The notes beneath the pieces were generated by a model. That model saw only the letters and a program-made list of their open reading frames with translations, did not search any database and was not told the DNA's origin. A program made the translations under genes and the position numbers. Shown piece by piece: positions 17,301 to 42,296 of a stretch of DNA of 64,000 nucleotides; position 1 is the first letter of the stretch, and every line of letters starts with the position of its first letter. Source of the DNA: a virus. Location of the stretch: the IMG/VR virus record IMGVR_UViG_3300023210_000015, positions 45,229-109,228 of that record; one strand, 5' to 3'.

Positions 17301-17772
17301 GTCGATGTTGAAGGCTCTACGCAATATGTCTGATAAGATTCCATATCAATTGTTTGGTCAATATAAGGTAGCTATGCCGAATCAGCCGCAACCTTTCGTG
17401 ATTGATTTCGCCTATCCAGATGTTGGGGTTGGCGTTGAGACTGATGGAGAAATTTGGCATGAACAGGCAACGTCCAGAGCTAGAGATCAGCAAAGAGATC
17501 AAAAACTTGCCAATGTTGGATGGCGTATATTGAGATTCAATGAAACTGCGGTTAATGACCATATAATTGATGTCTCTAAAATTATTTATAATAATGTGAT
17601 GCAGGCAACAAAAGAAAGAAATGCCAGAAATAAAAAAGCTGGTAAAGATGAAAAGTTGATTAAAGAAGCCCAACAGCTATTAACATTTGAAAACATAAAA
17701 GAGGAAGATTTGAAATTTCAAAGAATAGACATGGAGAATAATCTAGGTTATATAGTTTTGGTTGGGGTATAA
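14377..17772 (+). CDS. portal protein with an intein, a Gly/Met/Pro linker and a C-terminal DUF559/Vsr-like nuclease domain
   Basis: Position upstream of protease and MCP; portal-like core (FYYENEP.I...IDFYSQFP, KILNPDWI, HVKH..S.YG.YGTS); C-terminal IDFAYP...VETDG..WH......RD..RD..L...GW.ILRF. Confidence 0.85.
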   Translation: MPIKFSMNDRKPQNTGHSTTSRGYHSAGSPSSVVDNGRYVSGMVAQTPITQSFSSKTAQTMSSGGGSAANVMYGQPMFFSPLHTPQNWQIASKRREIYQWARFYYENEPKISAGIDFYSQFPMNGFTLECKDKKILNFFNRTSKRVKLNYWVKAISFENFLLGDVFPFVEYECEHCGGSGYKSNGEVCNHPGGTIKSIKILNPDWITVHSSPMASDPVYVLEPDDELKSIVASKRPVEIYEKMPPGLIQAISSGQPIRLSNRCISHVKHQGSTYGTYGTSLVRRNFTYLAYKTKLMTANWIVAERLVLPVRVVKIGSENRPATQADIADVSNQIAAVVNDPNLTLVTHHNFEYEWYGACYDQNTKVLTNKGLQKYTDIIHEEVGIDGEIVKKINDDVDIMVFDPKTGKMRLEKPIEFHEYDYNGWMNHITGNKVDMCVTPNHTMLGYKRDKKTAYSMEAKDFYKLNECDRYVRCCGDFATDTKKTIKIGDYEFDTDNFLKFLGYFLSEGYTTYNTEKFQYVLSVSQSNIKNANICKEIDDCFNGLNMSFKKYDNKKGMYAWNIMSKDFVKEMKKYFGKNAYTKKIPDFIKNLPPRQLKILIDAFCKGDATYYNYKHGTTGVQIGTVSEQLSVDLLEILFKAGFSPILSNYKKKNPSGSISHMIYCNLSEESKGRFPRIKDKHCQTEYYDGKVWCFETSTGFFVTERNGKFAIQGNTGKIHQITNELEQIGKEILDGFMLNQAILNGEMGGYSSAQVGIEVMIHRLESWRNSLSEWVENNIFLPIAMMQGFKDVDESKEAGETVWLYPKLKWNDLNLRDRTSYRQVLIQLHDKGLISTQTLLEEFDIDYDQEIQRRREETALATESGQFLGQPPAAGGMGGMPPMGGDLGGGMPPMGGDLGGGMPPAGGEMGGMPGGEMGGMPVAPAGGAVAAAAQPVSPPPNFMVQKRGKGQSAQEQMQPVQPNIKPMPLTTLEQSMLKALRNMSDKIPYQLFGQYKVAMPNQPQPFVIDFAYPDVGVGVETDGEIWHEQATSRARDQQRDQKLANVGWRILRFNETAVNDHIIDVSKIIYNNVMQATKERNARNKKAGKDEKLIKEAQQLLTFENIKEEDLKFQRIDMENNLGYIVLVGV
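15451..16521 (+). mobile_element. intein with LAGLIDADG endonuclease in the portal (357 aa)
   Basis: GA|CYDQNTKVLT; block B VTPNHTM; FLGYFLSEG and LIDAFCKGDA; ends VWCFET...FAIQGN|T. Confidence 0.9.
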
Positions 17773-18781: not shown

Positions 18782-21700
18782 ATGATTATTAAACATGCTA
18801 TTCGTTTAGTTGACGGAACTCTTGAGGCTCTGAATAAACCTGATTGGTATGAGTATAATATGAGTCGTGTTAAGTTTGCTTCTATCCAAAAAGATAAAAA
18901 TGATCTTGGTGGATTTGATTTAGAATCAGCAGTAAAAGAAAGTCCAGACTTTCTTTTTGTTAAAGTTTTTGCAATTAAAGAAGATGAAGTTAACGATAAT
19001 GGTGATGCATTTTCTAGTATGGAACTAAAAAAAGCGGCTAAAAGCTTTATCGGAGTTCCTATATTCACAAATCATCAAAACGATGATGTAGAGAAAGCAA
19101 AAGGACAATGTGTACACGCATGGTATGACAAAAATGCAGAAGGTATTTGGATTATATCAAAAATAGATAGAGTTGCTTATCCTCAATTAGCTCGTGGAAT
19201 AGAAGAAAAATATGTGGCAGGAACCAGCATGGGGGCCATGTCAGGTGACGCAGAAATTCTAATGTCTGATTATTCTAAGAAAAGAATTTCTGATGTAGAA
19301 ATAGGTGAAAAGGTTATTACACATTTAGGAAATTGCTGTAAGGTAGAAGAAGTACATAGTGATTTTATAGATGAGCATTTGTTAAAATTTGATTTAGGCA
19401 ATTTGGCCAATAGCCCATTGTTTACTCAAGACCATCCAATTTTTTCTATTAATGGAAAAACCATTCGAGAGCAGAAGAAAAATAATAAAGATTGGAGATC
19501 GTACCCATATGATTGTATTTTTAGAGAAGCAAAAGATTTGAAACTTGGTGATTACGTTCTTATACCATCTGCTCATAAAATGGTTAAAGAAAATGAATTC
19601 GATTTAGATTTTTATTATCTTCTAGGGGCATTTGCTGGTGATGGTTACATAAAATTTAACAGAGGAAAAATAGAAGGTTTTGGTTTCTGTTTTGGCAATC
19701 AAGATATTGCTTTAATAAGTAAAATTAAAAACATTTTAAGTCAATATACTGATTTTGATATCAAAGAAAAAATTATTGAATCAAGAAATGGTGTTTACCT
19801 TTCTATATATGACAGAAAATTAGCTAATAAATTAAACACTTTAATTGGGCATGGAGCGTATACTAAACGAATAAAAATTAAAGAATTTAGCGAAAATGCT
19901 ATTAAGCAATTTATATCTGGCTATATAGATACAGACGGTTGTTCAGTTAAAGATTATACAGATTGTAAAAATGATATTAGAGGTTTTCAAATTTCTAGTT
20001 GTAATAAAAACTTATTAGAAAGCGTTCGATCTATGCTCGTTTTGATTGGTTGTCCCGCCGGAATCATGACCAATATTAGAAAACCCAATAAAAATAGTGT
20101 AGTGGATATCGAAACCATAGAACATACTTTATTTATAAACTTGTTTACTTCTTCTAGGTTTAAAAACTCCATAAAGGTTGCCCAAAAATTAAATGGATAT
20201 GAAGCTTCTTATTGTAATACTCCTAACATGATTTATCGAGTAGGAGATCAAAATTATATTGCGGCAAGAATTAAGGGCGTAATTTTAGTTGATAATTACG
20301 ATAATGAAGTTTATGATTTGACTGTTGAAAAAGATGCTAGTTATATCGCTAATAATATAGCTGTTCACAATTGTTCTGTAGAATACTCTGTATGTTCGAT
20401 ATGCCACAACAAAGCTCATACTGCTGATGAGTATTGTGATCACATCAAAAACCACAAAACCAGAAAAGTAAGCGAAACTACAGAATGTCAATATCATAAA
20501 AGTCCAAACAAACCAATAGATGATTGTCCAGTTTGCGGCAAAAAACACAATGAATCTAAGAAATTATCACACAAAGAAGCCCAGGTATTTGAGTGGAACT
20601 ACGATGTAAAGTTTATCGAAGATTCTTTTGTTGTAAATCCTGCATGTCACACTTGCAATGTGAATGGGATTTTGAATCCTAATGGCATGAATAGAAAAGT
20701 GGCTACTATTAGAGATAGGATTGGAAAATTGGAAAAAGCAGCAAGTTCTGAAAATGATTGGTGTTTGGAAAAAACTGCTGGCGAAAGAGAACTGAAATAC
20801 TTGACTGATGCAATGGATAAAATAGAAACCGTGGCTAAAAGCATGATGAGTCAAAAGAAACAGATTTCTATGGAGTATGTAAGTGATTTAGTTGATGTTT
20901 TAGCCAGTGTACAGGCTACTTTGGATGAATTGGAAGAAATGGGATATGCTCAACTTCCGTCTCCAAGTGTACAGTCTGTTGAAGATGTCGAACTTCCGAA
21001 AGAAGCGGAAGAAGAGACAGAAATACAACCACAATCTCAAGCGGTTCAACCTCTAAATGCGGCCCCAACTATTCCACCGGCAGGACAACCACCAGTACAA
21101 CAGGTCGCTCCGGGAATTGAGAGCGAACAATTGGGAGATTTAGGGAGCGTAACTCGACCTAAGTTCTCTGAAACAATCGAGATAAAAAAGAAGGATTTTC
21201 TGAGAGCTTCCAGTAGTATTATAGATAGACTTGATAAAATTCAGGAAAATTATACAAAATTAGAAAAAAACTCTGAAGCTAATCAAACAAAAATAGATAA
21301 GGAGTCTATTACTATGGCAAATAAAACAGGTAACGACCAAAATGAAAATGAAAAAGTAGCAGAACATGATCTAAATGTTATTACAGAAAAGCAGTTAGAT
21401 GATGCCGAATTCACTGGTGAACGTACAAATGATTCTCCTAACGTCATCACTGAAAAGCAACTAGATAACCCTAAAGATGTCAATGTAACCACTTCTAAGA
21501 CTCCACAGGAGCGTTCTGGTTCTTATGACGTTATCACAGAAAAGCAACTGGCTTCTATTAAGGAAGGTTATGTCGTGCGTTGGAATGATTTCCCCAACGT
21601 AATCACTGAAAAACAGTGGACAGACATGAGCAGATTGCTTGGTTCTGAACTTTCCAATGACCAAAGTAACCGTATTACTGAGAAACAGTTAACTGATTTT

Positions 21701-24700
21701 ATGTCTAAGCATAAATACGTTAGTCCTACTGTTATCTATGAGAAACTTTTGAATGGTCAAGATGGAGAGTTGGCTCGTTGGGCTTCGGCGGATACCAATA
21801 CTTTGGTTAAAATCGCTGAAAATGTCATTGCTGACGCGATTGCGTATTATGGCAAGACACCTGATGAGATCAGAAAAGCTGCTTCTACCATTGATAACAA
21901 CGGTAATAATCAAGAAAAAGCGGCTTTCCTAGTCGTTATCAACTCTTTAGCTCATAAAGCAGATGCTCGTGAAAGCGAAAGAGTCCGTTACAACTATCTA
22001 AGTAAACTATCTTCTTCTGCGATTAATACTCCTTCGGCTGTTGATGCGTTGGTAATCGCTATGAGCGACAATATCGCTGATCAAGATGCCTTTGAATTAA
22101 TTGAAGTTGTTAATCATGTAGCCAAATCTAAAGTGGCTATTAAGAGAATCGAAGCCATCGCCAAGTCTAAGTTGTCTGGCGAAGGCGAAGATAAGAAGGT
22201 TGTTAGCAAACAAGCAGCTATCGAAGAGGCAATTGCCAATTTGAATAAAGCTGATGATGGTAAATACCGTATCGTTGCTAATTTCGGCAGCGAAAATGAT
22301 AAAGACGTTGACCTCCATGTGAGTCCTGAGAACAAAACGGCGTTTACAAGTGCTGTTTATAAATTTGCCAACGACGCAATCGCAGAAGAAGTTGGCACTG
22401 AAGTAGATACCGCACTTCTAGATGTTAATGTAGATAGCGGCAATAATGTTGTTGTTGCTACTCTGAAAGATGTTTCTGTTCTTACGGACGAAGAGAAAAC
22501 GAGTTGGGATAAGGTGGCACAGAGTTTACAAAGTCTTGTTGAAGACCCCACTAAGCCATCTCGTAGTTTCCTTCCAGATGCTGAGACACCGCTAGCTAAA
22601 GAAGGACTAGATATCCTTCCGGAACCCGGTGAAGAAGAATTAGCAATTGGTGTTGACGATATAGACCTAGAGGGTGTAGACCTAGATTTGGAACTTGACG
22701 TAAGTGGTGCCCCTGGCAGTCTTAATGAGGAACTGTTCGAAGGTGAAGGAAAAGACATGCTCATGGGCGATGAAGAAGTTATTAAAGATATGTCCATGGG
22801 AACTGAAGACGAAATGGCACTTGACATTGAAGATGCTCGCGGCGGTCCAGTTTTTGCTTCTAGAAAAGACAAACGTGATGGAATGGTTAAAGAAGCACAG
22901 CTACTTGGCGGCGAAATGGGCGGTCAAGGCGGTGCGGCTCAAGGTCCAGGTGCCGGTGCAGGACTGCCTCAACCTCCTGCTGGCGGCGAAGCTCCATTGG
23001 AGAGTTTCGAAGGTTCTGACCTTGGTGGCGAATTTGAGGACGAGGGTGATTTACAACCTAAACCACCTGGCTCGATTTGTCCAGTTTGCAGTAGCGAGAA
23101 TGTAGATATCATCAAGGGCGAGGGCAAATGTAATAACTGTACTTCTGAATTTAAGTACAAAGTTGCTATTGAGGTTACAAAGTGGGCTGATCTGCTTGAA
23201 GACCAAGATAATGGCGACGAGGAAGAAGATATTGAGGGCGAAGGCTTCGAAATCGAAGAAACACCTGAAGCTGCTGCCCCTCCTGCTGCTCCTGCCCCTC
23301 CTGCCGCTGCTCCTGCTCCTGCCCCAATGCCTGGTGCAGCAAGCACTGATAATGACAAAATACAAAAATTCGCAAGCGTTGACAGATTTGCGTCAATGAC
23401 TGTTATCAAACCAGAAGCTATTAAGGTTGCTAAAGAAGCTGGCATTGAGCTAGGTACTGTTAGCCCTGTAACTGGTTCTGCAAATACTATGAAATTGGAA
23501 GATGGAAGACGTTTCTGCTTGGATACGGGTACTCCTTATTCTGTAGAATATGCAGTTGATAAAAATGATCCTAAGAAAGTATATGCTCAGTGGTCTTGGA
23601 AGCCTCCAGTTGATGAAGGATGTTCGGAATGTGCGAAGAGTCATCAACAGTTCGTTGAGTCTCTAAGTACAATGAACATTACAGAAGATCAGTTCGATTC
23701 TATGGGACTGAAAGAGAAGGGCGAAACTATTTTGAGCATGAAACAAGCTGGATTGCTTAAACAGATTAAAACCGCTTCTGCGGAAACAAACAATATGATT
23801 AAGAAAGCAACAGTTACCTTGGGCGATAATTTCCCAATGGAATCTTGTGTTGAAAAACTAGCTCGTCGTTATGGCGAAGACGCATTGGCATTAAGTGGCC
23901 CTTGTGAGGGTAAGCCTCTTGCTGATTGCATCTGTGCTTCGCTTAAACGTTCTGGCATGTACTCTAGTAGGTTGGCTAATAAGGTCGCCAGCATCTGGTC
24001 TGATAAAGAAGCTTCCACCGAATGCCTAGAAGATTATGTAAGAATGGGATTCGAGTTGAAGGAAGCCGCTGCTGTTTGCCAAGCTTTGAAGACCAAGTAT
24101 GCGTCTCCTAAAGATGTATACGCACAGCAGTTAGGCGAAATCATCGAACAGGACGAAGAAGTTGATGTTCCTGTTGCTGATGATGAAGTCGGAGTAACAG
24201 ACTTGGGTGATGAAGACCCATTTGATGGAGAAGAGGTCGAAGGTGCTGGCGATGTGACAATTACATTGCCTGGCGAGGTTGTAGAGCAGCTTGACGCGGC
24301 TCTAGATACTGCTTTGGGCGAAACTCCAGAAGAAGAGGCTCATCACGAAGAGGGTATTGATGTTACAGAAGACGTAGGTGGACCGGCTGAAGAGGCCGTT
24401 GATGTTGCAGAAGGAGCAGAAGAGATGGTGCCAATGGAAGGCGGCGAAGTCGGCGAAAGCAAAGACATGGGTGGCGAAGTTGTTGAAATCGGCATCGAAG
24501 ACGGTGGAGAAGAAGTTGGTGGCATCGGTGAAGTTGGCGAAGTTGTAGAAGACGAAGTTGGCGAAGTTGTAGAAGACGAGGGTGAAATTGGTGGCGATAT
24601 CGGCGAAGATATCGCTGACGAAACAGCGGCCCCACAGGGGTTGGCTGAAGTAGTTGAAGAGGTTGTAGAAGCTGTAGAAGAAGCTGTAGAAAAGGTTAAA

Positions 24701-25972
24701 GAAATTATTGACGAAAAAAATGGTGTTGAAGAAGAAGGAATTTTAGAAGAAGATGAGAATAGTGAAGGAAATGACCTCCCAGGAGTTTTGAATCCTGAAG
24801 AAACTGATGTTGAAGTTGAGAAGGAAGGGGAGGAAGAGGAAACCGAAATGGACTTTGAAGAAAAGGAAGCTGCCATCATGAATAGAAATTACATCGGCAG
24901 AACTGACGAAATTGCTCATCTTGATTTTTCCAAGTTAGCCAGTGTTATTAAGGGTGCTGACACAATCAAGATTAAGCCTGCTCAAGACGTTGTTCCTTTC
25001 CAATATAGTGCTACAAGCACAATTGGCGATGAAGACGCTTTCACCGCTGACAAAGCAACTGCTCCCCATAAGGGTGATGCGGCTGCTATAGGAAATGAAG
25101 AACCTCCAAAGGCTGAAAAAGCAAGCGCTCCTACTTCCGACGCTCGTATGAGCGGAGAAAAAGATAATACTGATCTAAAACCAGAACTTGATGATGTCGC
25201 TACTGGCGGCGAAGAGGGTGCTGGTACTTCAAAGGCCGCTTCTACAAAAGAAAGAATTTCCAATTTGGCTGACGCAATCATCAAAGCTCAAGCTAATATC
25301 GAAGCTCAGACAAAAGTGAAAAGGAAATTCGTTCAAGACGATGAAGACACAAAGCCTTATTCTGGCGACAGTTTTATAGGCAATGAAAAAGAATCCATCG
25401 GTGATGTTCCTGCTGCCAAGCCTGCAATCGAGCAGAAGGTTCCAACCGATCAAGCCTTTATTGGCAATGAAAAAGAATCTATTGGCGAAAAGCCAAGTGA
25501 TGCCGACATGCCTGACATCCCAACAAAGGATAGCAGAATTGACGGCGAAAAAGATAATGAAAAAATCGCTCCTGAAAAGGACGATGAAATGACGGGCGAC
25601 GTTACAAATGGTGGCGTAAACGCGGAGTCTCACACTCATAGAAAAGAAGCAACTCGCGTTGCTGGTCGCATGCTTCAAGCTGGCAAGATTAGCATTGAAG
25701 ACTTAGCAACCAAGATCGCAGAGTTAGAACGCTATGAGAGTGGAACACTCAATGATATTGAGAACTCCATCTTTGATGAAAAGGGACTTAACACGCAATC
25801 CGAGGGGTTAGAGCAAGCCCCTGTAGTATCCGAAGACAGCAATCAGATAAAGGTTGCCAATTCGCAAGACGAGTTGGCTAAACAATTAACTGGTATGTTT
25901 AGTCTTTCTAGGAGAAACGAAGCTGCTCAAGAGGATTCCGATATCCAATTAAGGAAAGATTATGGTAGGTAA
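18782..25972 (+). CDS. prohead (capsid maturation) protease with an intein, fused to a large acidic scaffold/core region
   Basis: N.NGDAF, FIG.PIF.NH, GTSMG|C.V....CSIC and FIEDSFV..PA motifs; sits between portal and decoration/MCP genes. Confidence 0.85.
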   Translation: MIIKHAIRLVDGTLEALNKPDWYEYNMSRVKFASIQKDKNDLGGFDLESAVKESPDFLFVKVFAIKEDEVNDNGDAFSSMELKKAAKSFIGVPIFTNHQNDDVEKAKGQCVHAWYDKNAEGIWIISKIDRVAYPQLARGIEEKYVAGTSMGAMSGDAEILMSDYSKKRISDVEIGEKVITHLGNCCKVEEVHSDFIDEHLLKFDLGNLANSPLFTQDHPIFSINGKTIREQKKNNKDWRSYPYDCIFREAKDLKLGDYVLIPSAHKMVKENEFDLDFYYLLGAFAGDGYIKFNRGKIEGFGFCFGNQDIALISKIKNILSQYTDFDIKEKIIESRNGVYLSIYDRKLANKLNTLIGHGAYTKRIKIKEFSENAIKQFISGYIDTDGCSVKDYTDCKNDIRGFQISSCNKNLLESVRSMLVLIGCPAGIMTNIRKPNKNSVVDIETIEHTLFINLFTSSRFKNSIKVAQKLNGYEASYCNTPNMIYRVGDQNYIAARIKGVILVDNYDNEVYDLTVEKDASYIANNIAVHNCSVEYSVCSICHNKAHTADEYCDHIKNHKTRKVSETTECQYHKSPNKPIDDCPVCGKKHNESKKLSHKEAQVFEWNYDVKFIEDSFVVNPACHTCNVNGILNPNGMNRKVATIRDRIGKLEKAASSENDWCLEKTAGERELKYLTDAMDKIETVAKSMMSQKKQISMEYVSDLVDVLASVQATLDELEEMGYAQLPSPSVQSVEDVELPKEAEEETEIQPQSQAVQPLNAAPTIPPAGQPPVQQVAPGIESEQLGDLGSVTRPKFSETIEIKKKDFLRASSSIIDRLDKIQENYTKLEKNSEANQTKIDKESITMANKTGNDQNENEKVAEHDLNVITEKQLDDAEFTGERTNDSPNVITEKQLDNPKDVNVTTSKTPQERSGSYDVITEKQLASIKEGYVVRWNDFPNVITEKQWTDMSRLLGSELSNDQSNRITEKQLTDFMSKHKYVSPTVIYEKLLNGQDGELARWASADTNTLVKIAENVIADAIAYYGKTPDEIRKAASTIDNNGNNQEKAAFLVVINSLAHKADARESERVRYNYLSKLSSSAINTPSAVDALVIAMSDNIADQDAFELIEVVNHVAKSKVAIKRIEAIAKSKLSGEGEDKKVVSKQAAIEEAIANLNKADDGKYRIVANFGSENDKDVDLHVSPENKTAFTSAVYKFANDAIAEEVGTEVDTALLDVNVDSGNNVVVATLKDVSVLTDEEKTSWDKVAQSLQSLVEDPTKPSRSFLPDAETPLAKEGLDILPEPGEEELAIGVDDIDLEGVDLDLELDVSGAPGSLNEELFEGEGKDMLMGDEEVIKDMSMGTEDEMALDIEDARGGPVFASRKDKRDGMVKEAQLLGGEMGGQGGAAQGPGAGAGLPQPPAGGEAPLESFEGSDLGGEFEDEGDLQPKPPGSICPVCSSENVDIIKGEGKCNNCTSEFKYKVAIEVTKWADLLEDQDNGDEEEDIEGEGFEIEETPEAAAPPAAPAPPAAAPAPAPMPGAASTDNDKIQKFASVDRFASMTVIKPEAIKVAKEAGIELGTVSPVTGSANTMKLEDGRRFCLDTGTPYSVEYAVDKNDPKKVYAQWSWKPPVDEGCSECAKSHQQFVESLSTMNITEDQFDSMGLKEKGETILSMKQAGLLKQIKTASAETNNMIKKATVTLGDNFPMESCVEKLARRYGEDALALSGPCEGKPLADCICASLKRSGMYSSRLANKVASIWSDKEASTECLEDYVRMGFELKEAAAVCQALKTKYASPKDVYAQQLGEIIEQDEEVDVPVADDEVGVTDLGDEDPFDGEEVEGAGDVTITLPGEVVEQLDAALDTALGETPEEEAHHEEGIDVTEDVGGPAEEAVDVAEGAEEMVPMEGGEVGESKDMGGEVVEIGIEDGGEEVGGIGEVGEVVEDEVGEVVEDEGEIGGDIGEDIADETAAPQGLAEVVEEVVEAVEEAVEKVKEIIDEKNGVEEEGILEEDENSEGNDLPGVLNPEETDVEVEKEGEEEETEMDFEEKEAAIMNRNYIGRTDEIAHLDFSKLASVIKGADTIKIKPAQDVVPFQYSATSTIGDEDAFTADKATAPHKGDAAAIGNEEPPKAEKASAPTSDARMSGEKDNTDLKPELDDVATGGEEGAGTSKAASTKERISNLADAIIKAQANIEAQTKVKRKFVQDDEDTKPYSGDSFIGNEKESIGDVPAAKPAIEQKVPTDQAFIGNEKESIGEKPSDADMPDIPTKDSRIDGEKDNEKIAPEKDDEMTGDVTNGGVNAESHTHRKEATRVAGRMLQAGKISIEDLATKIAELERYESGTLNDIENSIFDEKGLNTQSEGLEQAPVVSEDSNQIKVANSQDELAKQLTGMFSLSRRNEAAQEDSDIQLRKDYGR
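19235..20371 (+). mobile_element. Ala1 intein with LAGLIDADG endonuclease in the protease (379 aa)
   Basis: SMG|AMSGDAEILMSD; block B FTQDHPIF; LLGAFAGDG and FISGYIDTDG; ends VYDLTV...IAVHN|C. Confidence 0.9.
21314..25972 (+). CDS. putative nested in-frame scaffold/core protein (MANKTGND...)
   Basis: TAAGGAG 9 nt before an in-frame ATG; AAGGATTTT promoter-like box at 21191. Confidence 0.5.
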   Translation: MANKTGNDQNENEKVAEHDLNVITEKQLDDAEFTGERTNDSPNVITEKQLDNPKDVNVTTSKTPQERSGSYDVITEKQLASIKEGYVVRWNDFPNVITEKQWTDMSRLLGSELSNDQSNRITEKQLTDFMSKHKYVSPTVIYEKLLNGQDGELARWASADTNTLVKIAENVIADAIAYYGKTPDEIRKAASTIDNNGNNQEKAAFLVVINSLAHKADARESERVRYNYLSKLSSSAINTPSAVDALVIAMSDNIADQDAFELIEVVNHVAKSKVAIKRIEAIAKSKLSGEGEDKKVVSKQAAIEEAIANLNKADDGKYRIVANFGSENDKDVDLHVSPENKTAFTSAVYKFANDAIAEEVGTEVDTALLDVNVDSGNNVVVATLKDVSVLTDEEKTSWDKVAQSLQSLVEDPTKPSRSFLPDAETPLAKEGLDILPEPGEEELAIGVDDIDLEGVDLDLELDVSGAPGSLNEELFEGEGKDMLMGDEEVIKDMSMGTEDEMALDIEDARGGPVFASRKDKRDGMVKEAQLLGGEMGGQGGAAQGPGAGAGLPQPPAGGEAPLESFEGSDLGGEFEDEGDLQPKPPGSICPVCSSENVDIIKGEGKCNNCTSEFKYKVAIEVTKWADLLEDQDNGDEEEDIEGEGFEIEETPEAAAPPAAPAPPAAAPAPAPMPGAASTDNDKIQKFASVDRFASMTVIKPEAIKVAKEAGIELGTVSPVTGSANTMKLEDGRRFCLDTGTPYSVEYAVDKNDPKKVYAQWSWKPPVDEGCSECAKSHQQFVESLSTMNITEDQFDSMGLKEKGETILSMKQAGLLKQIKTASAETNNMIKKATVTLGDNFPMESCVEKLARRYGEDALALSGPCEGKPLADCICASLKRSGMYSSRLANKVASIWSDKEASTECLEDYVRMGFELKEAAAVCQALKTKYASPKDVYAQQLGEIIEQDEEVDVPVADDEVGVTDLGDEDPFDGEEVEGAGDVTITLPGEVVEQLDAALDTALGETPEEEAHHEEGIDVTEDVGGPAEEAVDVAEGAEEMVPMEGGEVGESKDMGGEVVEIGIEDGGEEVGGIGEVGEVVEDEVGEVVEDEGEIGGDIGEDIADETAAPQGLAEVVEEVVEAVEEAVEKVKEIIDEKNGVEEEGILEEDENSEGNDLPGVLNPEETDVEVEKEGEEEETEMDFEEKEAAIMNRNYIGRTDEIAHLDFSKLASVIKGADTIKIKPAQDVVPFQYSATSTIGDEDAFTADKATAPHKGDAAAIGNEEPPKAEKASAPTSDARMSGEKDNTDLKPELDDVATGGEEGAGTSKAASTKERISNLADAIIKAQANIEAQTKVKRKFVQDDEDTKPYSGDSFIGNEKESIGDVPAAKPAIEQKVPTDQAFIGNEKESIGEKPSDADMPDIPTKDSRIDGEKDNEKIAPEKDDEMTGDVTNGGVNAESHTHRKEATRVAGRMLQAGKISIEDLATKIAELERYESGTLNDIENSIFDEKGLNTQSEGLEQAPVVSEDSNQIKVANSQDELAKQLTGMFSLSRRNEAAQEDSDIQLRKDYGR

Positions 25973-26620: not shown

Positions 26621-27490
26621 ATGATTACTAAGAATGGTTTAACAAACGAAGACAAGCTAGCAGTTATTGAAGCTGCTTTGAATACTGATGAAGGTCGTGT
26701 CGCCCTTGCGCAAGCAATTGTCGAGCCAATTCGCCGTTCTTTGGAATACCAGGCCGTTGGTCGTAAGCTTATTATGGTCGACGAACTACCTCAAGGCGCT
26801 CTCGCTCGTTACGAGAGAGACGTTGCCGCAATCGCTCATGTGATTTCTCGTCGTGGTGCTGTTCCCGACCAGATTCAAGAAGGCGAAGAGGTCTTGGTTC
26901 CAACGTTCGAAATCGCCGCTCACCCAACTGTACGTTTGAGTGAAATCAAAGCTCGTCGTTTCTACATTGTAGATAGAGCGCAGATTAAGGCAAAAGAGGC
27001 TATTCAAAAAGAGGAAGATACCAATATTTTCAACGCATTGATCGCTGCTGCCACTAACCGTGGTACGCAAGTTGTTGTCAACGTTGGAGCTTTGAGTATC
27101 AACTCGTTGAACACGGCGTATCGTCTGATCGAACAGCATGACCTAGTTGCAACAAAGGTCGTTCTGCACGCGAATCAGTTTGCTACAATCCGTATCTTTG
27201 GCAAAGATTTCTACGATGAGGCAACTCAGCGTGAAATCATCACAACTGGCCTTTACGGTCACTTGTGGACTGCCGATATCCACGTTTCCAGTCGTATGGA
27301 CACGGATACGGTCCTCGTTGTTGCCTCGCCTGACACAGTGGGTGCGTTCCCCATCCGTCAGGATATTACAGTTCTTCCCGCCGATGATCCCAAGAAATTG
27401 CGTCTTGGCTGGGTGATCTATGAAGAGGTTGGCATCGTTGTGTTGAACGATTACGCTCTAAGCATAATCGAAGTATCAACAGCTAGCTAA
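26621..27490 (+). CDS. major capsid protein (HK97 fold)
   Basis: Strong RBS, biased codon usage and a downstream terminator; motifs EPIRR.L.Y..VGRK...VDELPQG, V.VPTFEI...P, GLYGHLW, GWVIYEEVG. Confidence 0.9.
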   Translation: MITKNGLTNEDKLAVIEAALNTDEGRVALAQAIVEPIRRSLEYQAVGRKLIMVDELPQGALARYERDVAAIAHVISRRGAVPDQIQEGEEVLVPTFEIAAHPTVRLSEIKARRFYIVDRAQIKAKEAIQKEEDTNIFNALIAAATNRGTQVVVNVGALSINSLNTAYRLIEQHDLVATKVVLHANQFATIRIFGKDFYDEATQREIITTGLYGHLWTADIHVSSRMDTDTVLVVASPDTVGAFPIRQDITVLPADDPKKLRLGWVIYEEVGIVVLNDYALSIIEVSTAS

Positions 27491-27578: not shown

Positions 27579-29303
27579 ATGCATAAAAGAAAAATATTCA
27601 ACTTTGAATCTGTTATTTTAGATCATTTAACTATAGAAAAAGAAGGATATCCTCCTGTTCAATATAGTAATGGTTCTGCGAAATTTATTTGGGCCACCTG
27701 TAGATATTGCGGTGAACCTCATCGTTTGCGTAAATGTTTTTTCTATAGAAGCGGATCAGCATGTCACAAAGAGTGTAGAATAGAAGAACAGAAACAACAA
27801 GTGTCTCCATTCGCTGATAAAAAAGTTAGGAAAAAAGCCGAAGAAACTAATCTCAAAAAATATGGAGTTAAACATGCTGCCTCTAATCCTAAAATTCGTT
27901 CTAAAATTTCTAAAACTAAAAAAACTGAATTTTCTAAAAACAAAACGAAGCAAACGAATTTACAAAAATATGGTGTTGAAAATGTATTTCAAAATCCTGA
28001 AATAAAAAACAAAATAGCTGCTACTAACAAAAAACGCTATGGATACAAATCTCCTATTCAAAACCAGTCAATCATGGATAAAATACAAAAAACTAATCTC
28101 AATAAATTTGGTTTTATCAATCCAATGCAGAATGATGTCGTAAAAGAAAAAGCCGTAGCAACCAGTATGGACAGATATAATAAACCAAATCCTATGCAAA
28201 ATGCAAAAATTGCCAAACAAACATCTATTTCTCTTAAAACAACTATAAAAAATAATGTTTCTGGTAATTATAATTTAATCAATTTGTTGCGCGGTAAATC
28301 CTTTTGGAGTATGTTAAAAAAAGAAGATATAACGTTATTAGAAATATGTGATTATTTTAATATAAATTATGGCAGCTTAACTGCCCACTTAGTTCAAGAT
28401 GAATTTAAAAATAAATATTACAGTATTTACTCTTTCCCAACGCAGCAAAAACAAAAAGAATTAATCAATTGTATTAAAAAAATGGGGATACGCGATAATC
28501 AAATTATAATTAACACCAGAAAAGTAATTTCTCCTCTAGAACTTGACATATATATACCTCATTTAAATGTGGCTATAGAATTCAATGGAAGTTATTGGCA
28601 TTCAGAAGCAATTCTTTCTTCTATAGAGGCTAGAAATAAACACATACATAAAACGAAATTATGCCGAGATAAAGGAATATTTTTATTACATATCTTTGAG
28701 AATAATTGGCATCAGAAAAAACAACAACTATTGAACTATATAAAGTCCAAACTGGGTCTAAATCAAAATAGAATCGCGGCCAGAAAATGTACGATAGATC
28801 ATACGAATGCTAAAGATTTTATCGACACTAATCATATACAGGGGTATGGTCGTGGAACAATAAAATATTTCAATTTGAGATATGACGGAAAAATTATTGG
28901 CAGCATGACAGCTTCGTTGCATCACAGACAAAAAGACGCTAATGTTATTTTAAATAGACTTTGTTTCTGTAGTGATACGACTATACAAGGAGGAGGGCGT
29001 AGGCTATTTAAGTATTTTGAACTTTGGGCACGAGAACAAAATTATAAAAATATTATATCGTGGTCAGATAATAGTTGGACTGACGGTAACATATATCCTA
29101 TTTTGGGATTTAAAAAAGAGCATGCATATGGACCTGATTATTTTTACTGGGATATAAAAAGTAAAAAATATTTCTCTAAACAATCTAAACAAAAGAGTAA
29201 AATTGGTTGTCCAAAAGATATGACGGAACATGAATATTGTATGCAGATGGGTCTTTACAGAATTTGGGATTGCGGAAAAATTCGTTGGATATATGATTTG
29301 TAA
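27579..29303 (+). CDS. free-standing homing endonuclease (PD-(D/E)xK, Hef-like) with 'TNLxKYGV' repeats and a GNAT-like C-terminus
   Basis: ELDIYIP..NVAIEFNGSYWHS; repeats TNLKKYGV/TNLQKYGVEN/TNKKRYG; ends RIWDCGK.RW. Confidence 0.8.
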   Translation: MHKRKIFNFESVILDHLTIEKEGYPPVQYSNGSAKFIWATCRYCGEPHRLRKCFFYRSGSACHKECRIEEQKQQVSPFADKKVRKKAEETNLKKYGVKHAASNPKIRSKISKTKKTEFSKNKTKQTNLQKYGVENVFQNPEIKNKIAATNKKRYGYKSPIQNQSIMDKIQKTNLNKFGFINPMQNDVVKEKAVATSMDRYNKPNPMQNAKIAKQTSISLKTTIKNNVSGNYNLINLLRGKSFWSMLKKEDITLLEICDYFNINYGSLTAHLVQDEFKNKYYSIYSFPTQQKQKELINCIKKMGIRDNQIIINTRKVISPLELDIYIPHLNVAIEFNGSYWHSEAILSSIEARNKHIHKTKLCRDKGIFLLHIFENNWHQKKQQLLNYIKSKLGLNQNRIAARKCTIDHTNAKDFIDTNHIQGYGRGTIKYFNLRYDGKIIGSMTASLHHRQKDANVILNRLCFCSDTTIQGGGRRLFKYFELWAREQNYKNIISWSDNSWTDGNIYPILGFKKEHAYGPDYFYWDIKSKKYFSKQSKQKSKIGCPKDMTEHEYCMQMGLYRIWDCGKIRWIYDL

Positions 29304-37004: not shown

Positions 37005-39131
37005 ATGCCAGCGAAAGGACAAAAATTATCAGAACAAAGTGTCACTTTAATGAAGGACAATAAAAGAAAACGTTTATTAAATCAATATAAATGGGATTTA
37101 GTTAAACCTTATTTGGATATAAATCTTTCTTTATCTTCTAGGGGGCGTAAGCGTCATTTTATTACATTGAGACAATTTAAAGAATACATTGAAAGCGGAC
37201 TAAGTATAAGAGAAATACAAAAATTAACATCTAAAAATCTCGTTTCGTTTTATAGCATATTATGCCAAGGAAAAATTGACCTTAGTAAAAATGAATTTAT
37301 ACAACAATATGAAAGTGGAAAACCTCTCGAAGAAATAGCGGAAGATAATAAGATTAGCAAAGATTATATCGGGTATTTAAGACAGTTATATCGAATCAAA
37401 TCTAAAGGGGCGAAGTTTATTCGCCGCAAAGAAACTGAAACACCGTTAACACAGAGACAAATTGAAATATTATATGGCTCTATGCTAGGTGATGCCCAAC
37501 GCTTAGGTGGAGCGGGTGTCCTTTTTCGACAAGGAGGGGAACAAAAAGATTACTTATTGTGGAAATATAAAGAATTTGAGAGCGTTGCTTCTCCTGATTC
37601 TTTAAAATCAACACATTCTATTGATTTTAGGTCGGAAACAGAAATAACATCTTGGTCATTTTATACTTTTGCTAATACGGATATCGAAAAATGTATTTCA
37701 TCATTTTATCAAGTTGATCCTAATGATTCCTCGAAAAAAGTGAAAGAAGTTTCTCGTGACATTTTAAATCAACTGACTCCATTATCGCTGTCCGTTTGGT
37801 TTATGGACGATGGGCAGACAGACTTCCAACACAGATCGATTGTGAAGGGGAACAATAGTAACCCGACTTGTAATATATGTACTGATTCTTTTTCTAAAAA
37901 AAGTTGTGAAAATATAAAAGAATGGTTTAAAGAAAAGTTTGATATTGATGTCAATATCAAAGATCATCCTTTAAAATATAGAATGGGATATCGAATACGC
38001 ATGAATGCCAAGAATACAAAGCAATTCATAGATTTAATTTCTCCACATATATTGCCCATGTTTCAGTATAAAACTGATTATGAGTCATATAAAAATAAAA
38101 GATTAGAATTGCAAAAACAAGAAATAGATTATGGGAAAATCATGAAGTGTCCATTAGGTGTTGATTTCAAAATGCTTACTGCGAAAGAACAAAGCGGATA
38201 CATTGAAAACCTTGTTGTATCATTTTACAAAGGTGGTTTTAATGCTTTGATGGATGACCCAAAAACTATACAAAATCATATGAATGCTGTTTTAAAGGTG
38301 AACCCGAATAATTTAATTAAAGATGATTTTATTTCGTTTTCAAATGTTGGCAATCGATTTTTAATGGCTCATTTTCCGAACTATTGGGATGCCAAGGCGA
38401 AGGGGAATAAGTCACCAAGAGAAATTTTTGAAAACAAGAAATATTTATCAGAAATTATACGTAAAATAATCACAAATGGAACTTTTCCAAATAAAAAAGA
38501 AATATTAAAGTCGTTGAAACGATATCGTGGGAATAAGGCCGCCAGTGGATTTATGCCCTGTGTTGCCAAATCAATATATCATAAATATTGTGATAAAAAT
38601 TCAAAAGTTATTGATTTTTGCGCTGGGTATGGAGGTAGATTGTTCGGTGCATTTGCTTGTGAAAAGGTGTTTTCTTATACTGGTATAGAAATTAATTTTA
38701 AAACATATTATGGTTTACACGATCTGTACAAAACATTGAGAGAAAAATCGGGTGAAAGCAAAGAAATGAGTCTTCTTAATCAGGATAGTATTATTGGTAT
38801 GAAACAATTTAAAGATAATACTTTTGATTTCTGTTTTACTTCTCCTCCCTATTTTGATGCAGAAGAATATGAAGATAGTCAATTGCAAAGTTCTCAAAAG
38901 TATGATACATATGGAGAGTGGTTTGAAGAATATCTAATTAAATGCGTTCAAGAGGCAACGAGAATTTCTAGAAAAGTAGCAATTGATATTGCTAATACTG
39001 GTGGATACCAGATCGCTGACGATCTTGAAAGGTGGTTAAATAAAAATAATTATAATTTTTCACAGGACCAAATTAGGATGCCAAGATATGATGGCAAATT
39101 TAGATTTGAACCAATTTTTGTCATCGAATAA
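37005..39131 (+). CDS. LAGLIDADG endonuclease domain fused to an amino-DNA methyltransferase
   Basis: ILYGSMLGDA and LSVWFMDDG (LAGLIDADG_2 type); VIDFCAGYGGRL (motif I) and FTSPPYF (motif IV). Confidence 0.82.
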   Translation: MPAKGQKLSEQSVTLMKDNKRKRLLNQYKWDLVKPYLDINLSLSSRGRKRHFITLRQFKEYIESGLSIREIQKLTSKNLVSFYSILCQGKIDLSKNEFIQQYESGKPLEEIAEDNKISKDYIGYLRQLYRIKSKGAKFIRRKETETPLTQRQIEILYGSMLGDAQRLGGAGVLFRQGGEQKDYLLWKYKEFESVASPDSLKSTHSIDFRSETEITSWSFYTFANTDIEKCISSFYQVDPNDSSKKVKEVSRDILNQLTPLSLSVWFMDDGQTDFQHRSIVKGNNSNPTCNICTDSFSKKSCENIKEWFKEKFDIDVNIKDHPLKYRMGYRIRMNAKNTKQFIDLISPHILPMFQYKTDYESYKNKRLELQKQEIDYGKIMKCPLGVDFKMLTAKEQSGYIENLVVSFYKGGFNALMDDPKTIQNHMNAVLKVNPNNLIKDDFISFSNVGNRFLMAHFPNYWDAKAKGNKSPREIFENKKYLSEIIRKIITNGTFPNKKEILKSLKRYRGNKAASGFMPCVAKSIYHKYCDKNSKVIDFCAGYGGRLFGAFACEKVFSYTGIEINFKTYYGLHDLYKTLREKSGESKEMSLLNQDSIIGMKQFKDNTFDFCFTSPPYFDAEEYEDSQLQSSQKYDTYGEWFEEYLIKCVQEATRISRKVAIDIANTGGYQIADDLERWLNKNNYNFSQDQIRMPRYDGKFRFEPIFVIE

Positions 39132-39188
39132 TCTACTTGGTGAAACCTTATATGTTAGAATGTATGAAATATAAGATTGGAGAATAAA

Positions 39189-39560
39189 ATGCCACTTATT
39201 ATAACCGCATGGTGTACTAATTGTAAAAAAGCCGCTGCTGGTACGCTTCAATACGTACAATATTGGCTTGAAGAAGACGGCTCAAAAACACATCTTTCTC
39301 ATCCGTTTGAAGGTTTTATTTTATATGATAAATGGAAGGAAGAATACAAAGAAAAAGGCATAACATTTAACGAAATGGAAAAAGAACGCTCAGGTTGTGC
39401 AACGGCATTTTGGGACACAGAAAACAAATGTTTAATTTATATTGATGAAGATCGAGAAGAAAAACCGGATAACGCTGTTAATGTTTGTAGCGATGAAGCT
39501 GTCGTTATTTGTAAAGACTGCGGAGAAAAAACAAGTTTTGCTCCATTTGCAATGTCATAG
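39189..39560 (+). CDS. small Zn-ribbon-like hypothetical protein
   Basis: CTNC...CKDC; GGAG RBS. Confidence 0.55.
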   Translation: MPLIITAWCTNCKKAAAGTLQYVQYWLEEDGSKTHLSHPFEGFILYDKWKEEYKEKGITFNEMEKERSGCATAFWDTENKCLIYIDEDREEKPDNAVNVCSDEAVVICKDCGEKTSFAPFAMS

Positions 39561-39569
39561 GATAATAAT

Positions 39570-39866
39570 ATGGAAATAGAAGAAGTCAGAAAACAAATAT
39601 GCAAAGCGATGTTGGAAGATATCGATAAAGAGTGGAAAAACATTGAAGAAGAGTTTGAAGAAAGCTGTATGAAACACTTTTTATCATGGGTTCTGTTGTC
39701 GCATGGCGAACAAGTCAAAGAAGAGTGCAAAAAAATATTTGCAAAAAATATTAGTCCAAAATTGCCTTTACTTGAAGTTCTATCTCAAGCATTGGACACG
39801 GTATACGAAACAGATTTAGAAGAAGCGGCAGAGGCAGCGAGAATGCCTTTTGACGATAGAGAATAG
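39570..39866 (+). CDS. hypothetical protein
   Basis: AGGA RBS; operon context. Confidence 0.5.
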   Translation: MEIEEVRKQICKAMLEDIDKEWKNIEEEFEESCMKHFLSWVLLSHGEQVKEECKKIFAKNISPKLPLLEVLSQALDTVYETDLEEAAEAARMPFDDRE

Positions 39867-39876
39867 GGAGAATAAA

Positions 39877-40275
39877 ATGGAATATGATTTTAGTTGGATG
39901 AAAGAAAAAAATCTACCTGATGGTAGTTATCGTGTAGACGGAGAATACCTAGAACCTAGAGAAATAGAAGCTAAAGCGATTTCAACGATGACTCAATATG
40001 TTGATGATGCTAACCGATATTATATGAGCAAAGTCGAAAATGATGGACCTGATGTGTGGTTATGGTGGTCGTATTGTCGATCTTTAGACAGCGAAATTAA
40101 TCCTAGATTATCTCACTTCATGGTTTGGGGAACAAACCTAAAAACTTTTGGCAAACATGATGTAATGCCGAAAAAAGCATTATTTGTATTCGCCGGTTAT
40201 GATACCATGTTCAGAGACATGTGTACTAAGGAGACTCTCGATGAATGGGAAGAGAAAATCAAAGAAAATGACTGA
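39877..40275 (+). CDS. hypothetical protein
   Basis: GGGAG RBS before ATG 39877. Confidence 0.5.
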   Translation: MEYDFSWMKEKNLPDGSYRVDGEYLEPREIEAKAISTMTQYVDDANRYYMSKVENDGPDVWLWWSYCRSLDSEINPRLSHFMVWGTNLKTFGKHDVMPKKALFVFAGYDTMFRDMCTKETLDEWEEKIKEND

Positions 40276-40561
40276 AGAAGAGAAAAACAAAAAAATACTT
40301 GAAATTTTAAGTACAGAAGAGGGAAGATCGGCACTAGCTAAAGCCATGTGGGAACCGGCTCGTTGTGGCGGCATGGCATACGCCAATGACGGAAAAGCAT
40401 TTATTCGATTTGGCGGTTATTGGTATGATTATGAAAAATGGAAACAACAGTATAATAATAACAGACATCAAATACCAGTTGAATGGATGAAAGAGTATTG
40501 TGAAACAAATGAACACAAAAATAATTCTGAAGATTTTGTGGTAGGAGAAAATAGTGGATAA
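40268..40561 (+). CDS. small protein starting with a copy of the MCP N-terminal helix
   Basis: MTEEEKNKKILEILSTEEGRSALAKAMWEPAR aligns with MCP LTNEDKLAVIEAALNTDEGRVALAQAIVEPIR. Confidence 0.7.
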   Translation: MTEEEKNKKILEILSTEEGRSALAKAMWEPARCGGMAYANDGKAFIRFGGYWYDYEKWKQQYNNNRHQIPVEWMKEYCETNEHKNNSEDFVVGENSG

Positions 40562-40787
40562 ATACAAAATAAAAGAACCCAATTGGTTTCAAGACAAGAA
40601 TACCGGTGCGACAACATGCTTGGCTATGTCAGTAAATCCAGAAACCAACAGAATTTATGTGGTGGTTAGCACCGAAATACCTCTTATGCGTTTAGAAGAA
40701 ATCGATGAATCTGTAAAATTGGAAGTGAGTAAACAATTAGCAGAAACAGCAGAATTTATTATGCAAAATAAAAAAGATATTTATTAA
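40554..40787 (+). CDS. hypothetical protein
   Basis: AGGAG RBS; GTG start. Confidence 0.5.
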   Translation: MDKYKIKEPNWFQDKNTGATTCLAMSVNPETNRIYVVVSTEIPLMRLEEIDESVKLEVSKQLAETAEFIMQNKKDIY

Positions 40788-40791
40788 AAAA

Positions 40792-40971
40792 GTGACACCA
40801 GAAGAATTTAAAATAGAGTGGCAGAAGATGATGGAAGAAAACGCGAAGTGGCGTAGGGAAACAATGGTTCCCATATATCAAGCGCAAATAATTTCAGCTT
40901 GCATGGAGAGTGACATCGGAAGAAAAGCGTTATCACAAGCAGTAGCAAAAAGATTATTGGGAGAAAAATAG
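40792..40971 (+). CDS. 59-aa ORF (not in the ORF track) with an MCP-N-helix-like C-terminus
   Basis: MTPEEFKIEWQKMMEENAKWRRETMVPIYQAQIISACMESDIGRKALSQAVAKRLLGEK. Confidence 0.5.
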   Translation: MTPEEFKIEWQKMMEENAKWRRETMVPIYQAQIISACMESDIGRKALSQAVAKRLLGEK

Positions 40972-41080
40972 TGTATAAATTCAAAAGGAAATATATCTTT
41001 CTTCTATAATATAAAGACATGGAAACTTATAACATTCACAACCTTGATTCCCTCTAGTTATTAACTAGAGGAGAATTAAT

Positions 41081-41455
41081 ATGAGCGGTTATTTCAGACA
41101 CCCTAAAACCCTTAACGAGAAAAAAGCAAATCAAGATTGGCCAGTGCGCGGAAGAAGAATGTCCAAAAGGCTTCCACATTTTTGGGACGATATTTGGAAC
41201 CGCACCACCCGCTGCTGGAAGAAAACTCGAAAAACACAGTATAGAGTCAAATCTGTCAAACCCAAAAAAGATAGCACCAGATACGGCAAATCGATGGCAA
41301 AACGAGATCATTTTTACAAAGAACACAAAGCGTGTCGCTATGAAAGACGCAGATGCACATATTGCATTAAACATGGTTGTTGGGACGAATATGACAAATA
41401 TATTGAACGTCATTATAGAAGGATTCTGGCAGAGCAACCAAACAATTATTTCTAA
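41081..41455 (+). CDS. small basic phage protein
   Basis: AGGAGGAG RBS; FRHPKT..EK...R.RR....LP..WDD....R.WK..RK.QY pattern. Confidence 0.6.
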   Translation: MSGYFRHPKTLNEKKANQDWPVRGRRMSKRLPHFWDDIWNRTTRCWKKTRKTQYRVKSVKPKKDSTRYGKSMAKRDHFYKEHKACRYERRRCTYCIKHGCWDEYDKYIERHYRRILAEQPNNYF

Positions 41456-41489
41456 AGGAATTCGTTTAACTATTTTCGAATAATTAAGT

Positions 41490-42296
41490 ATGATAACTTT
41501 AGATGACAAAACAATTTATATCGTATCTGATTTACACATGGGAAACGGATCAAAAGCTGACAGTTTCGCACCATATGCAAAAATCTTTAATGATTTTTTA
41601 GACATGGTAGACCAAGACCCTAATGGAATCCTTATTATCGCAGGTGATGTCTTCGAGTTATGGCAATTCAGTAGCGGAAATATATTCAAAACATATTTTG
41701 ATTTGATCAAACGACTTATTAATATGAATACGATTTTCATCATTGGCAATCATGACATAGATTTGTTTGGGTTTATTGATTCTCCATTAAAATTATCTTT
41801 TTTAGATCAATTAAAGAATGATGTTCAGATTGAACGTGGTGGACAAAAAATAAAAATAATTCATGGTCATGAGTTTGATATCTTCAACAATCCTTCTAAA
41901 TCACTGTTCATGGGAAGAATAGTCACATTGCTTGTTGGAGAATATGAGAAGAACAATCAAGACTTTGACAAATGGGCAGAAAAGTATTTAGAGCCGTTCT
42001 TTAGGAAACTTTCTTTGTTCGCTATGAATTTTTATAGTAGATTTTTTGGGAAAAGTCAGTCACAGGTCGAAGGAAAATTGTCAAAGATACTGGAGAAATA
42101 TCACAAAAATAATCCTAATGAATTTATCGTGTCTGGTCATACTCATTATCCCGGATGGTTTGGTGATTGGTATGTAAATACTGGTTCATGGGAGAGGAAA
42201 GATAATCCTCACTACGTTAAGATTACACCAGATGGGTCTGTAACGCTCTATAAATACCCAGAAAATACGATAGTGACTAAACAGTACAACTCTTAG
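41490..42296 (+). CDS. calcineurin-like metallophosphoesterase (LpxH-like)
   Basis: SDLHMG, GDVFELW, GNHD, HGHEFD, GHTH, YVNTGSW. Confidence 0.88.
   Translation: MITLDDKTIYIVSDLHMGNGSKADSFAPYAKIFNDFLDMVDQDPNGILIIAGDVFELWQFSSGNIFKTYFDLIKRLINMNTIFIIGNHDIDLFGFIDSPLKLSFLDQLKNDVQIERGGQKIKIIHGHEFDIFNNPSKSLFMGRIVTLLVGEYEKNNQDFDKWAEKYLEPFFRKLSLFAMNFYSRFFGKSQSQVEGKLSKILEKYHKNNPNEFIVSGHTHYPGWFGDWYVNTGSWERKDNPHYVKITPDGSVTLYKYPENTIVTKQYNS

Follow-up and report, generated by a model that had tools for sequence, protein, structure and literature searches.

Small accessory proteins of a phage-G-like megaphage that share the capsid N-arm module and may mimic a capsid-assembly contact

Two small open reading frames on a phage contig, ORF1 and ORF3, resemble the N-terminal arm (N-arm) of the major capsid protein (MCP) encoded on the same contig, which raises the question of what such capsid pieces are and what they might do. 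The window analyzed here is a 64-kb stretch, the final part of a 109,228-bp viral contig, and in it the two frames lie 230 bp apart and 13.6 kb from the intact MCP gene. The MCP showed a profile match to phrog_2522 (2.9e-62), 53% identity to Bacillus phage G gp27, and a match at 8e-93 to the gp27 chain of PDB 6WKK. More than 100 relatives with MCP identities of 68 to 91% were found in IMG/VR, several of them on contigs of 370 to 548 kb. The likeness to phage G gp27 and these large-contig relatives indicate that the source contig is a piece of an uncultured, phage-G-like megaphage. The MCP N-arm consists of a helix, a T-x-EGR turn, a second helix, and then an RRSLEY segment; an AF2 model (pLDDT 56, used for helix positions only) places the helices at residues 9 to 20 and 23 to 46. 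An inward-facing, scaffold-binding N-arm has been established in other HK97-fold phages such as 80alpha (PMC5644958) and is presumed here by analogy. Directly 3' of the MCP gene is a gene for a 574-aa HNH-type homing endonuclease (27579-29303; phrog_3339 at 1.9e-106, DUF7487). The window also encodes a portal-like protein of 1131 aa (14377-17772), the portal match of which is confined to residues 54 to 349; it has other weak matches inside and may hold an insertion. A 2396-aa ORF (18782-25972) is located between the portal and decoration genes, and neither a prohead protease nor its cleavage motif was found in the annotation of this phage.

A sequence-only reading of this DNA had proposed that copies of the MCP N-terminus, about half identical in one ungapped alignment, occur in an ORF beginning at 40268 and in a 59-aa ORF at 40792. 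By pairwise BLASTP, the 40268 ORF aligned with the MCP with 19/46 identities (33 bits, E = 3e-7 for the pair), and 16 of 32 residues were identical in the ungapped core of ORF1 and the MCP, in agreement with that estimate; no match was obtained between the MCP and ORF3 or between ORF1 and ORF3. When the first 50 MCP residues were searched against all 1643 six-frame ORFs of the 109-kb contig, ORF1 and ORF3 were the top two non-self matches, with E-values of 3.5e-4 (phmmer) and 9e-5 (blastp) for ORF1 and 0.09 and 0.065, respectively, for ORF3. A profile of the MCP N-termini of 63 distinct relatives gave contig-wide E-values of 2.5e-9 for ORF1 and 1.3e-3 for ORF3, and a profile of 266 database instances of the module, from which window-derived proteins were left out, gave 1.2e-13 and 5.7e-5. 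The real score was reached by 0/5000 shuffles for ORF1 (33-47 bits vs a shuffle maximum of 9) and by 0/5000 for ORF3 (15-19 bits vs a maximum of 8). The proposed N-arm copies are thus present in both ORFs, and the alignment stands against shuffled controls. The copy in ORF3, although its homology is upheld by the profiles and shuffles, is partial; it corresponds to MCP residues 12 to 33 and lacks the VEPIR end.

The likeness had been described as a single helix, but it actually extends over two helices and the segment that follows them (MCP residues 5-44). Residues 9 to 47 of ORF1 align with this region, and RCGGMAY of ORF1 stands opposite RRSLEY of the MCP. Helices of ORF1 were predicted at residues 12 to 24 and 26 to 40 in a single-sequence model (pLDDT 50, helix positions only); the ORF1 and MCP models were too poor for a fold search, and the protein atlas yielded nothing usable. 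The start of ORF1 also needed correction. It is most likely ATG 40241 rather than 40268, because AAGGAG is found upstream of 40241 at the usual GGAG spacing, which is that of the MCP, decoration, and neighboring genes, and because ORF1 is 106 aa long in public gene calls; no site of this kind precedes 40268 (Table 1). The upstream start adds a basic leader of nine residues. The codon usage of ORF1 was gene-like (0.37 bits per codon vs 0.45 for the MCP), and the other frames scored negative. ORF1 had no PHROG or Pfam match, and no homologue of its tail of ~60 residues was found in database searches. Neither whole ORF1 nor whole ORF3 had a match in 50,697 phage records or in IMG/VR, and their database homologues were near-identical clusters only. 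P0001, a public variant nearly identical to ORF1 and encoded on a 46.8-kb contig, has Ile at the near-invariant Arg of the EGR turn, which reflects either an error in sequencing or a relaxation of constraint. The full-length MCP profile aligned with ORF1 only at model positions 4 to 39 of 288 and with ORF3 only at positions 11 to 34. ORF1 was rejected as an MCP of the phage G type (phrog_2522, HK97 fold), because only the N-arm is present, without the E-loop and the P and A domains of the full fold of ~280 to 300 aa.

Table 1. Positions in the window of the capsid gene, the two small ORFs, and their module segments
Feature	Position	Strand	Evidence
MCP gene, 289 aa, intact, intron-less	26621..27490	+	phrog_2522, phage G gp27, and PDB 6WKK matches
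MCP N-arm module (residues 6-44), template of the copies	26636..26752	+	near-invariant in 63 relatives
AAGGAG ribosome-binding site of ORF1, 7 nt 5' of ATG 40241	40228..40233	+	sequence
ORF1, 106 aa, N-arm module plus ~60-aa tail	40241..40561	+	public gene calls; in-frame codon usage
ORF1 N-arm-like module (residues 9-41) and RCGGMAY signature (42-47)	40265..40381	+	profiles, shuffles
ORF3, 59 aa from GTG 40792 (or 47 aa from ATG 40828)	40792..40971	+	59 aa called in public data
ORF3 partial module, residues 32-51 vs MCP 12-33	40885..40944	+	profiles, shuffles

ORF3 consists of an acidic/aromatic N-terminal helix followed by the truncated module, a layout similar to those of the database proteins P0065, P0246, and P0144. 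Its in-frame codon score was positive but weaker than that of ORF1 (0.16 bits per codon), and no ribosome-binding site was found at the GTG start, so its translation is less certain. The full-length and module profiles found no capsid similarity in 39850-40275 or 40554-40787, and they gave only noise (E = 0.6-2) for the ORF at 39570-39866; a five-member array derived from the MCP was rejected, since only ORF1 and ORF3 were matched. ORF1 is surrounded by accessory genes, which encode a LAGLIDADG endonuclease fusion, a metallophosphatase, a radical SAM protein, and an ArdC-like protein. The neighborhood is non-syntenic and not conserved in relatives, and ORF1 and ORF3 sit in a hypervariable accessory region. 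Just 5' of the small-ORF array, 37005-39131 encodes a 708-aa protein with a LAGLIDADG_2 domain at residues 153 to 341 (5e-27) and a long C-terminal part that is methyltransferase-like by eye. A promoter and terminator scan found sites to be no commoner than in shuffles. A perfect 9-bp hairpin, CCTCTAGTT-ATT-AACTAGAGG, is present at 41046-41066. The 3' arm of this hairpin, which may end the small-ORF array as a terminator or else control translation, overlaps the GAGGAG ribosome-binding site that precedes the ORF at 41081.

The copies had been regarded as products of no recent duplication, and the codon positions bear this out. Over 32 aligned codons, ORF1 and the MCP gene were identical at 63% of first, 69% of second, and 19% of third positions; at 19% third-position identity, silent sites are saturated while the peptide has been kept. 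ORF1 shared 16/32 residues with its own MCP, and over the MCPs of 63 relatives the mean was 16.2 and the best 19, so that its own MCP is no closer than those of the relatives. A recent copy of the resident MCP is contradicted by both the codon-position identities and the equal distance to the family of MCPs, and by these measures ORF1 is not homogenized with the resident MCP gene. These comparisons support the view that the copies in ORF1 and ORF3 are old and have been kept at the peptide level.

Small N-terminal capsid pieces also arise in relatives, in which the MCP gene is split within its first 65 codons, at sites that follow residues 32, 42, and 54-55 and, judging from 65-aa exon-1 calls, probably also about residue 63. 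Inserts of ~1.1 to 1.2 kb split the gene after residue 32 or 54 in L056:8736-10774 and L071:8739-10708 and also in L057, L068, L052, and L079. Where read, the inserts contained a LAGLIDADG endonuclease gene, and that of L056 matched a group I intron below threshold (31.8 bits against a gathering score of 50; E = 6e-6). These split genes explain many of the small "N-terminal capsid" proteins in the databases. Their exon-1 frames (33-65-aa proteins) hold the same N-terminal capsid residues as ORF1 and ORF3 and come up in the same searches, but they precede a group I intron, a homing endonuclease gene, and exon 2, whereas ORF1 and ORF3 have no intron or exon 2 nearby. In 39000-41600, Rfam gave no match at E ≤ 1 and no intron-like RNA, and the contig contained no other MCP-like ORF that could serve as exon 2. 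On these grounds, and because the MCP gene at 26621 is uninterrupted, ORF1 and ORF3 were rejected as exon 1 of a split MCP gene. An intron/exon relic at this site was rejected as well, given the lack of intron RNA and an adjacent LAGLIDADG protein that is unrelated to the one in the MCP introns.

A scan of the contig and its relatives with the MCP N-terminal profile, the check proposed by the sequence-only reading, matched ORF1 and ORF3, and the module recurred in small proteins of megaphages. A 40-position profile of the module, compared with 1.84 billion representative proteins, matched 460 clusters at E ≤ 1e-3 and 87 at ≤ 1e-10. The best 149 of the 460 representatives comprised 11 MCPs or long fragments, 14 bare N-terminal pieces, and 123 proteins with the module plus other sequence, the last being a mixed bin that still includes exon-1 read-throughs and gene fragments from short contigs. 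These 123 proteins had a median length of 93 aa; more than 15 residues precede the module in 73, ~25 have Tat-like RR-x-F-L/I-K or membrane leaders, seven have the RCGG end, and another feature, a C-terminal RF[DE]ILDL tail, is also found in seven. Many of the database matches are on short contigs and may be gene fragments. The profile built solely from MCPs recovered 265 module domains among the proteins from two profile searches. The same positions as in the MCPs are kept in 43 clear non-capsid members: L20, G25, and L29 (98% each), R26 (89%), and E35 and P36 (87%). We defined the family by the helix, T-x-EGR turn, and helix with L20, T22, E24, G25, R26, A28, L29, A30, A32, M33, E35, P36, and R38 (MCP numbering). 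ORF1 has all of the conserved residues except A19 and belongs to this family, and ORF3 is a partial member that keeps G25, R26, A28, L29, Q31, and A32 and lacks M33 to R38. In the RCGG subclass, R-C-G-G-(L/M/W)-(E/A/T)-Y comes immediately after the module, where the capsid protein has RRSLEY, and ORF1, with RCGGMAY, falls into it. The signature, as RCGGLEY or close variants, is common to about nine clusters (P0128, P0133, P0151, P0152, P0167, P0172, P0173, P0209, and P0242); P0223, among the matches listed for RCGG, has RCYRY instead. Several proteins of this class contain little beyond the module, and in P0167 the module is at the extreme C-terminus of 389 aa. No Pfam family covers the module, and the sole PHROG that does is the capsid family. 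At the level of sequence, the searches show that many "hypothetical" mini-proteins of megaphages have one recognizable module, with no Pfam or PHROGs family of its own.

Extra copies of the module were found in some large genomes. The complete 548-kb genome G002 has three module ORFs, of 72, 104, and 273 aa, the last being a weaker match; a 75-aa module ORF with a membrane leader was read on a 402-kb contig; and a 1.9-kb contig has three tandem module reading frames, one of them cut by the contig end and one of 25 aa. There were no extra copies in phage G, in four further large relatives, of which three are complete, or in 15 partial contigs of relatives. Sporadic presence among close relatives and a non-syntenic accessory neighborhood are typical of conflict or accessory genes. 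RF[DE]ILDL occurred 25 times in G002 (control 0), at the extreme C-terminus of small proteins where read (e.g., L086:1393-1957 and L106), including the 72-aa and 104-aa module ORFs, and was absent from the source contig and from G001 and G004. The motif may be a C-terminal tag that these proteins share. In P0142, P0160, P0186, P0228, P0235, and L188:6370-6597, which are small proteins, a twin-arginine-type leader (MNRRxFIK and a hydrophobic stretch) precedes the N-arm module, and such Tat-led proteins sometimes extend to about MCP residue 80. A metagenome scan for Tat-led and RCGG-class proteins returned mostly MCPs; neither type was found in IMG/VR, and the Tat-led type was absent from 185,579 species genomes. 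The scan of these genomes gave 230 pattern matches, among which the confirmed ones were only three mis-binned MCPs. The megaphage-sized contigs of P0055 (G002, 548 kb) and P0172 (557 kb) are assigned at NCBI to Asgard archaeal MAGs (Candidatus Asgardarchaeum; Promethearchaeota), a placement that is probably mis-binning and could be a hint of the host.

Several explanations for the small ORFs were weighed. A chance likeness of short amphipathic helices is scarcely credible: an EGR-type motif also occurs in the unrelated repeat protein P0191, and ORF3 matches over only ~20 residues and fails pairwise BLAST, but the profile E-values and shuffle controls already refute chance for ORF1, and the top two non-self matches in 109 kb are only 230 bp apart. 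We consider it improbable that the ORFs are non-functional relics, that is, 5' exons of the MCP gene copied elsewhere by intron/homing-endonuclease traffic or recombination and now decaying. Such traffic is suggested by the split MCP genes of relatives, with their LAGLIDADG genes and intron match, and by the homing endonuclease genes that flank both the MCP gene and the small-ORF array; moreover, the homology of ORF3 ends at about residue 33, beside one insertion site, and P0001 has lost the conserved Arg. Decay is difficult to reconcile with saturated silent sites in a conserved peptide, with an open ORF1 frame that has a ribosome-binding site and gene-like codon usage, and with the RCGG signature of an independent small-protein class; the expected intron-like RNA and exon 2 are missing near ORF1 and ORF3, and the neighboring LAGLIDADG protein is unrelated to the intron one. 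The recurrence of the module in many small megaphage proteins likewise speaks for a functional unit rather than debris.

Among explanations that assume a function, the module could be a capsid-targeting tag that docks on the scaffold or shell interior, so that whatever polypeptide is joined to it enters the head and may later be delivered to the host, in the manner of the T4 internal proteins. This is unlikely in our estimation, even though the module is found at either end of unrelated sequences (e.g., the C-terminus of P0167) and inside proteins of 300 to 450 aa, and although giant phage heads hold many internal proteins (PMC7411985, PMC3012670). Most members are 40 to 120 aa long without a cargo domain and several are the module alone, which speaks against a pure handle; Tat-like leaders do not suit packaging, and no extra copy is present in phage G, the sole relative in culture for which virion proteomics exist. 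The T4 capsid targeting sequence of IPI-III is similar in being a short N-terminal peptide common to several small proteins, which it directs to the prohead core, but it has ~10 residues, is removed by the prohead protease, and is not a capsid copy; no sequence relation between it and the module was seen. A general two-helix interaction domain with a non-capsid partner, for example, a chaperone or membrane factor, in which case the MCP merely shares the module, is quite unlikely. The Tat-like and membrane-anchored forms and those joined to the C-terminal tag of the 25 G002 proteins are in its favor, and the Tat-led forms and the RF[DE]ILDL tail class could indicate a different partner; yet among annotated families the module occurs in that of the capsid protein alone, and the species genomes yielded no confirmed match other than the mis-binned MCPs. 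Finally, a small protein that imitates the conserved capsid N-terminus might act as an immune decoy by occupying or blunting a host sensor that recognizes the MCP. Bacterial sensors that bind MCPs are established, namely, Avs7, Avs8, Avs10, and Dsr1 (PMC13581612), and a patchy, fast-changing accessory distribution suits an arms race. However, the known sensors recognize the core fold and not the N-arm peptide (PMC13581612), the trigger, if copied early, would be more likely to activate the sensor, and no PADLOC or anti-defense matches were found; we therefore hold the decoy to be decidedly improbable.

Most of the members are tiny, multi-copy, patchy, and situated amid accessory genes, and for this reason we prefer competition at an assembly interface to a cargo tag, a decoy, or decay. 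In this tentative explanation, to which we give somewhat less than even confidence, ORF1 would be an accessory protein, an old N-arm paralogue that is maintained by selection and belongs to a widespread mini-protein family, ORF3 would be a degenerate second copy, and the mechanism would be mimicry of a capsid-assembly contact. In 80alpha procapsids, a C-terminal helix-and-hook of the scaffold binds the N-arm helix of the capsid protein, and a satellite protein, which has a similar motif, competes for it (PMC5644958). Since in HK97-fold procapsids the N-arm helix is the docking site of the scaffold C-terminus and packs on its neighbors, a free N-arm should bind the same partner; by molecular mimicry, it would bind whatever the MCP N-arm binds. 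ORF1 would thereby rival the capsid protein and modulate or spoil the building of heads, be they the phage's own or those of co-infecting relatives, whose N-arm is near-invariant. We infer both the binding partner of ORF1 and its effect on assembly.

SaPI1 CpmB, with its likeness to the 80alpha scaffold, is a comparable small accessory protein: like ORF1, it has a short helical motif in common with a component of head assembly, and ORF1 would likewise compete at the scaffold/N-arm interface (PMC5644958). By contrast, CpmB is satellite-encoded and copies the scaffold C-terminal helix-and-hook, whereas ORF1 is phage-encoded and copies the capsid N-arm. ORF1 was accordingly rejected as a scaffold mimic of the CpmB type, for what it shares is the capsid N-arm, which it carries at its own N-terminus, and it is encoded on the phage contig itself. 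T4 gp24, the vertex protein, is also a capsid-protein duplicate kept in the same genome, but paralogues of the gp24 type are full HK97 folds in the shell, and ORF1 has the N-arm only.

Several observations count against mimicry. A mimic of a near-invariant N-arm would strike the phage's own assembly too, and no scaffolding protein of this phage was found. The Tat-like or membrane leaders on ~25 of the 123 proteins fit a cytoplasmic assembly role poorly, and the module may have another partner. The loss of the nearly invariant Arg of the EGR turn in P0001 also appears to be at odds with mimicry. A broader proposal, which we consider rather doubtful, is that phage-G-like megaphages have a large family of N-arm mimics, in free, membrane-anchored, Tat-led, and tag-fused forms, that would act at the scaffold/capsid interface as weapons directed at co-infecting relatives or as a modular address label for the interior of the capsid, with ORF1 as a working member.

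In the literature searched, we found no case of a phage that copies its own capsid assembly arm into small accessory proteins. If the module docks at the N-arm contact, this would be the first case that we have found of such copying. If true, the mimicry would offer a handle on the assembly of very large (T = 52-type) heads and on the intracellular competition of related megaphages, and the module, as a natural tag of 35 residues, might address proteins to such capsids.
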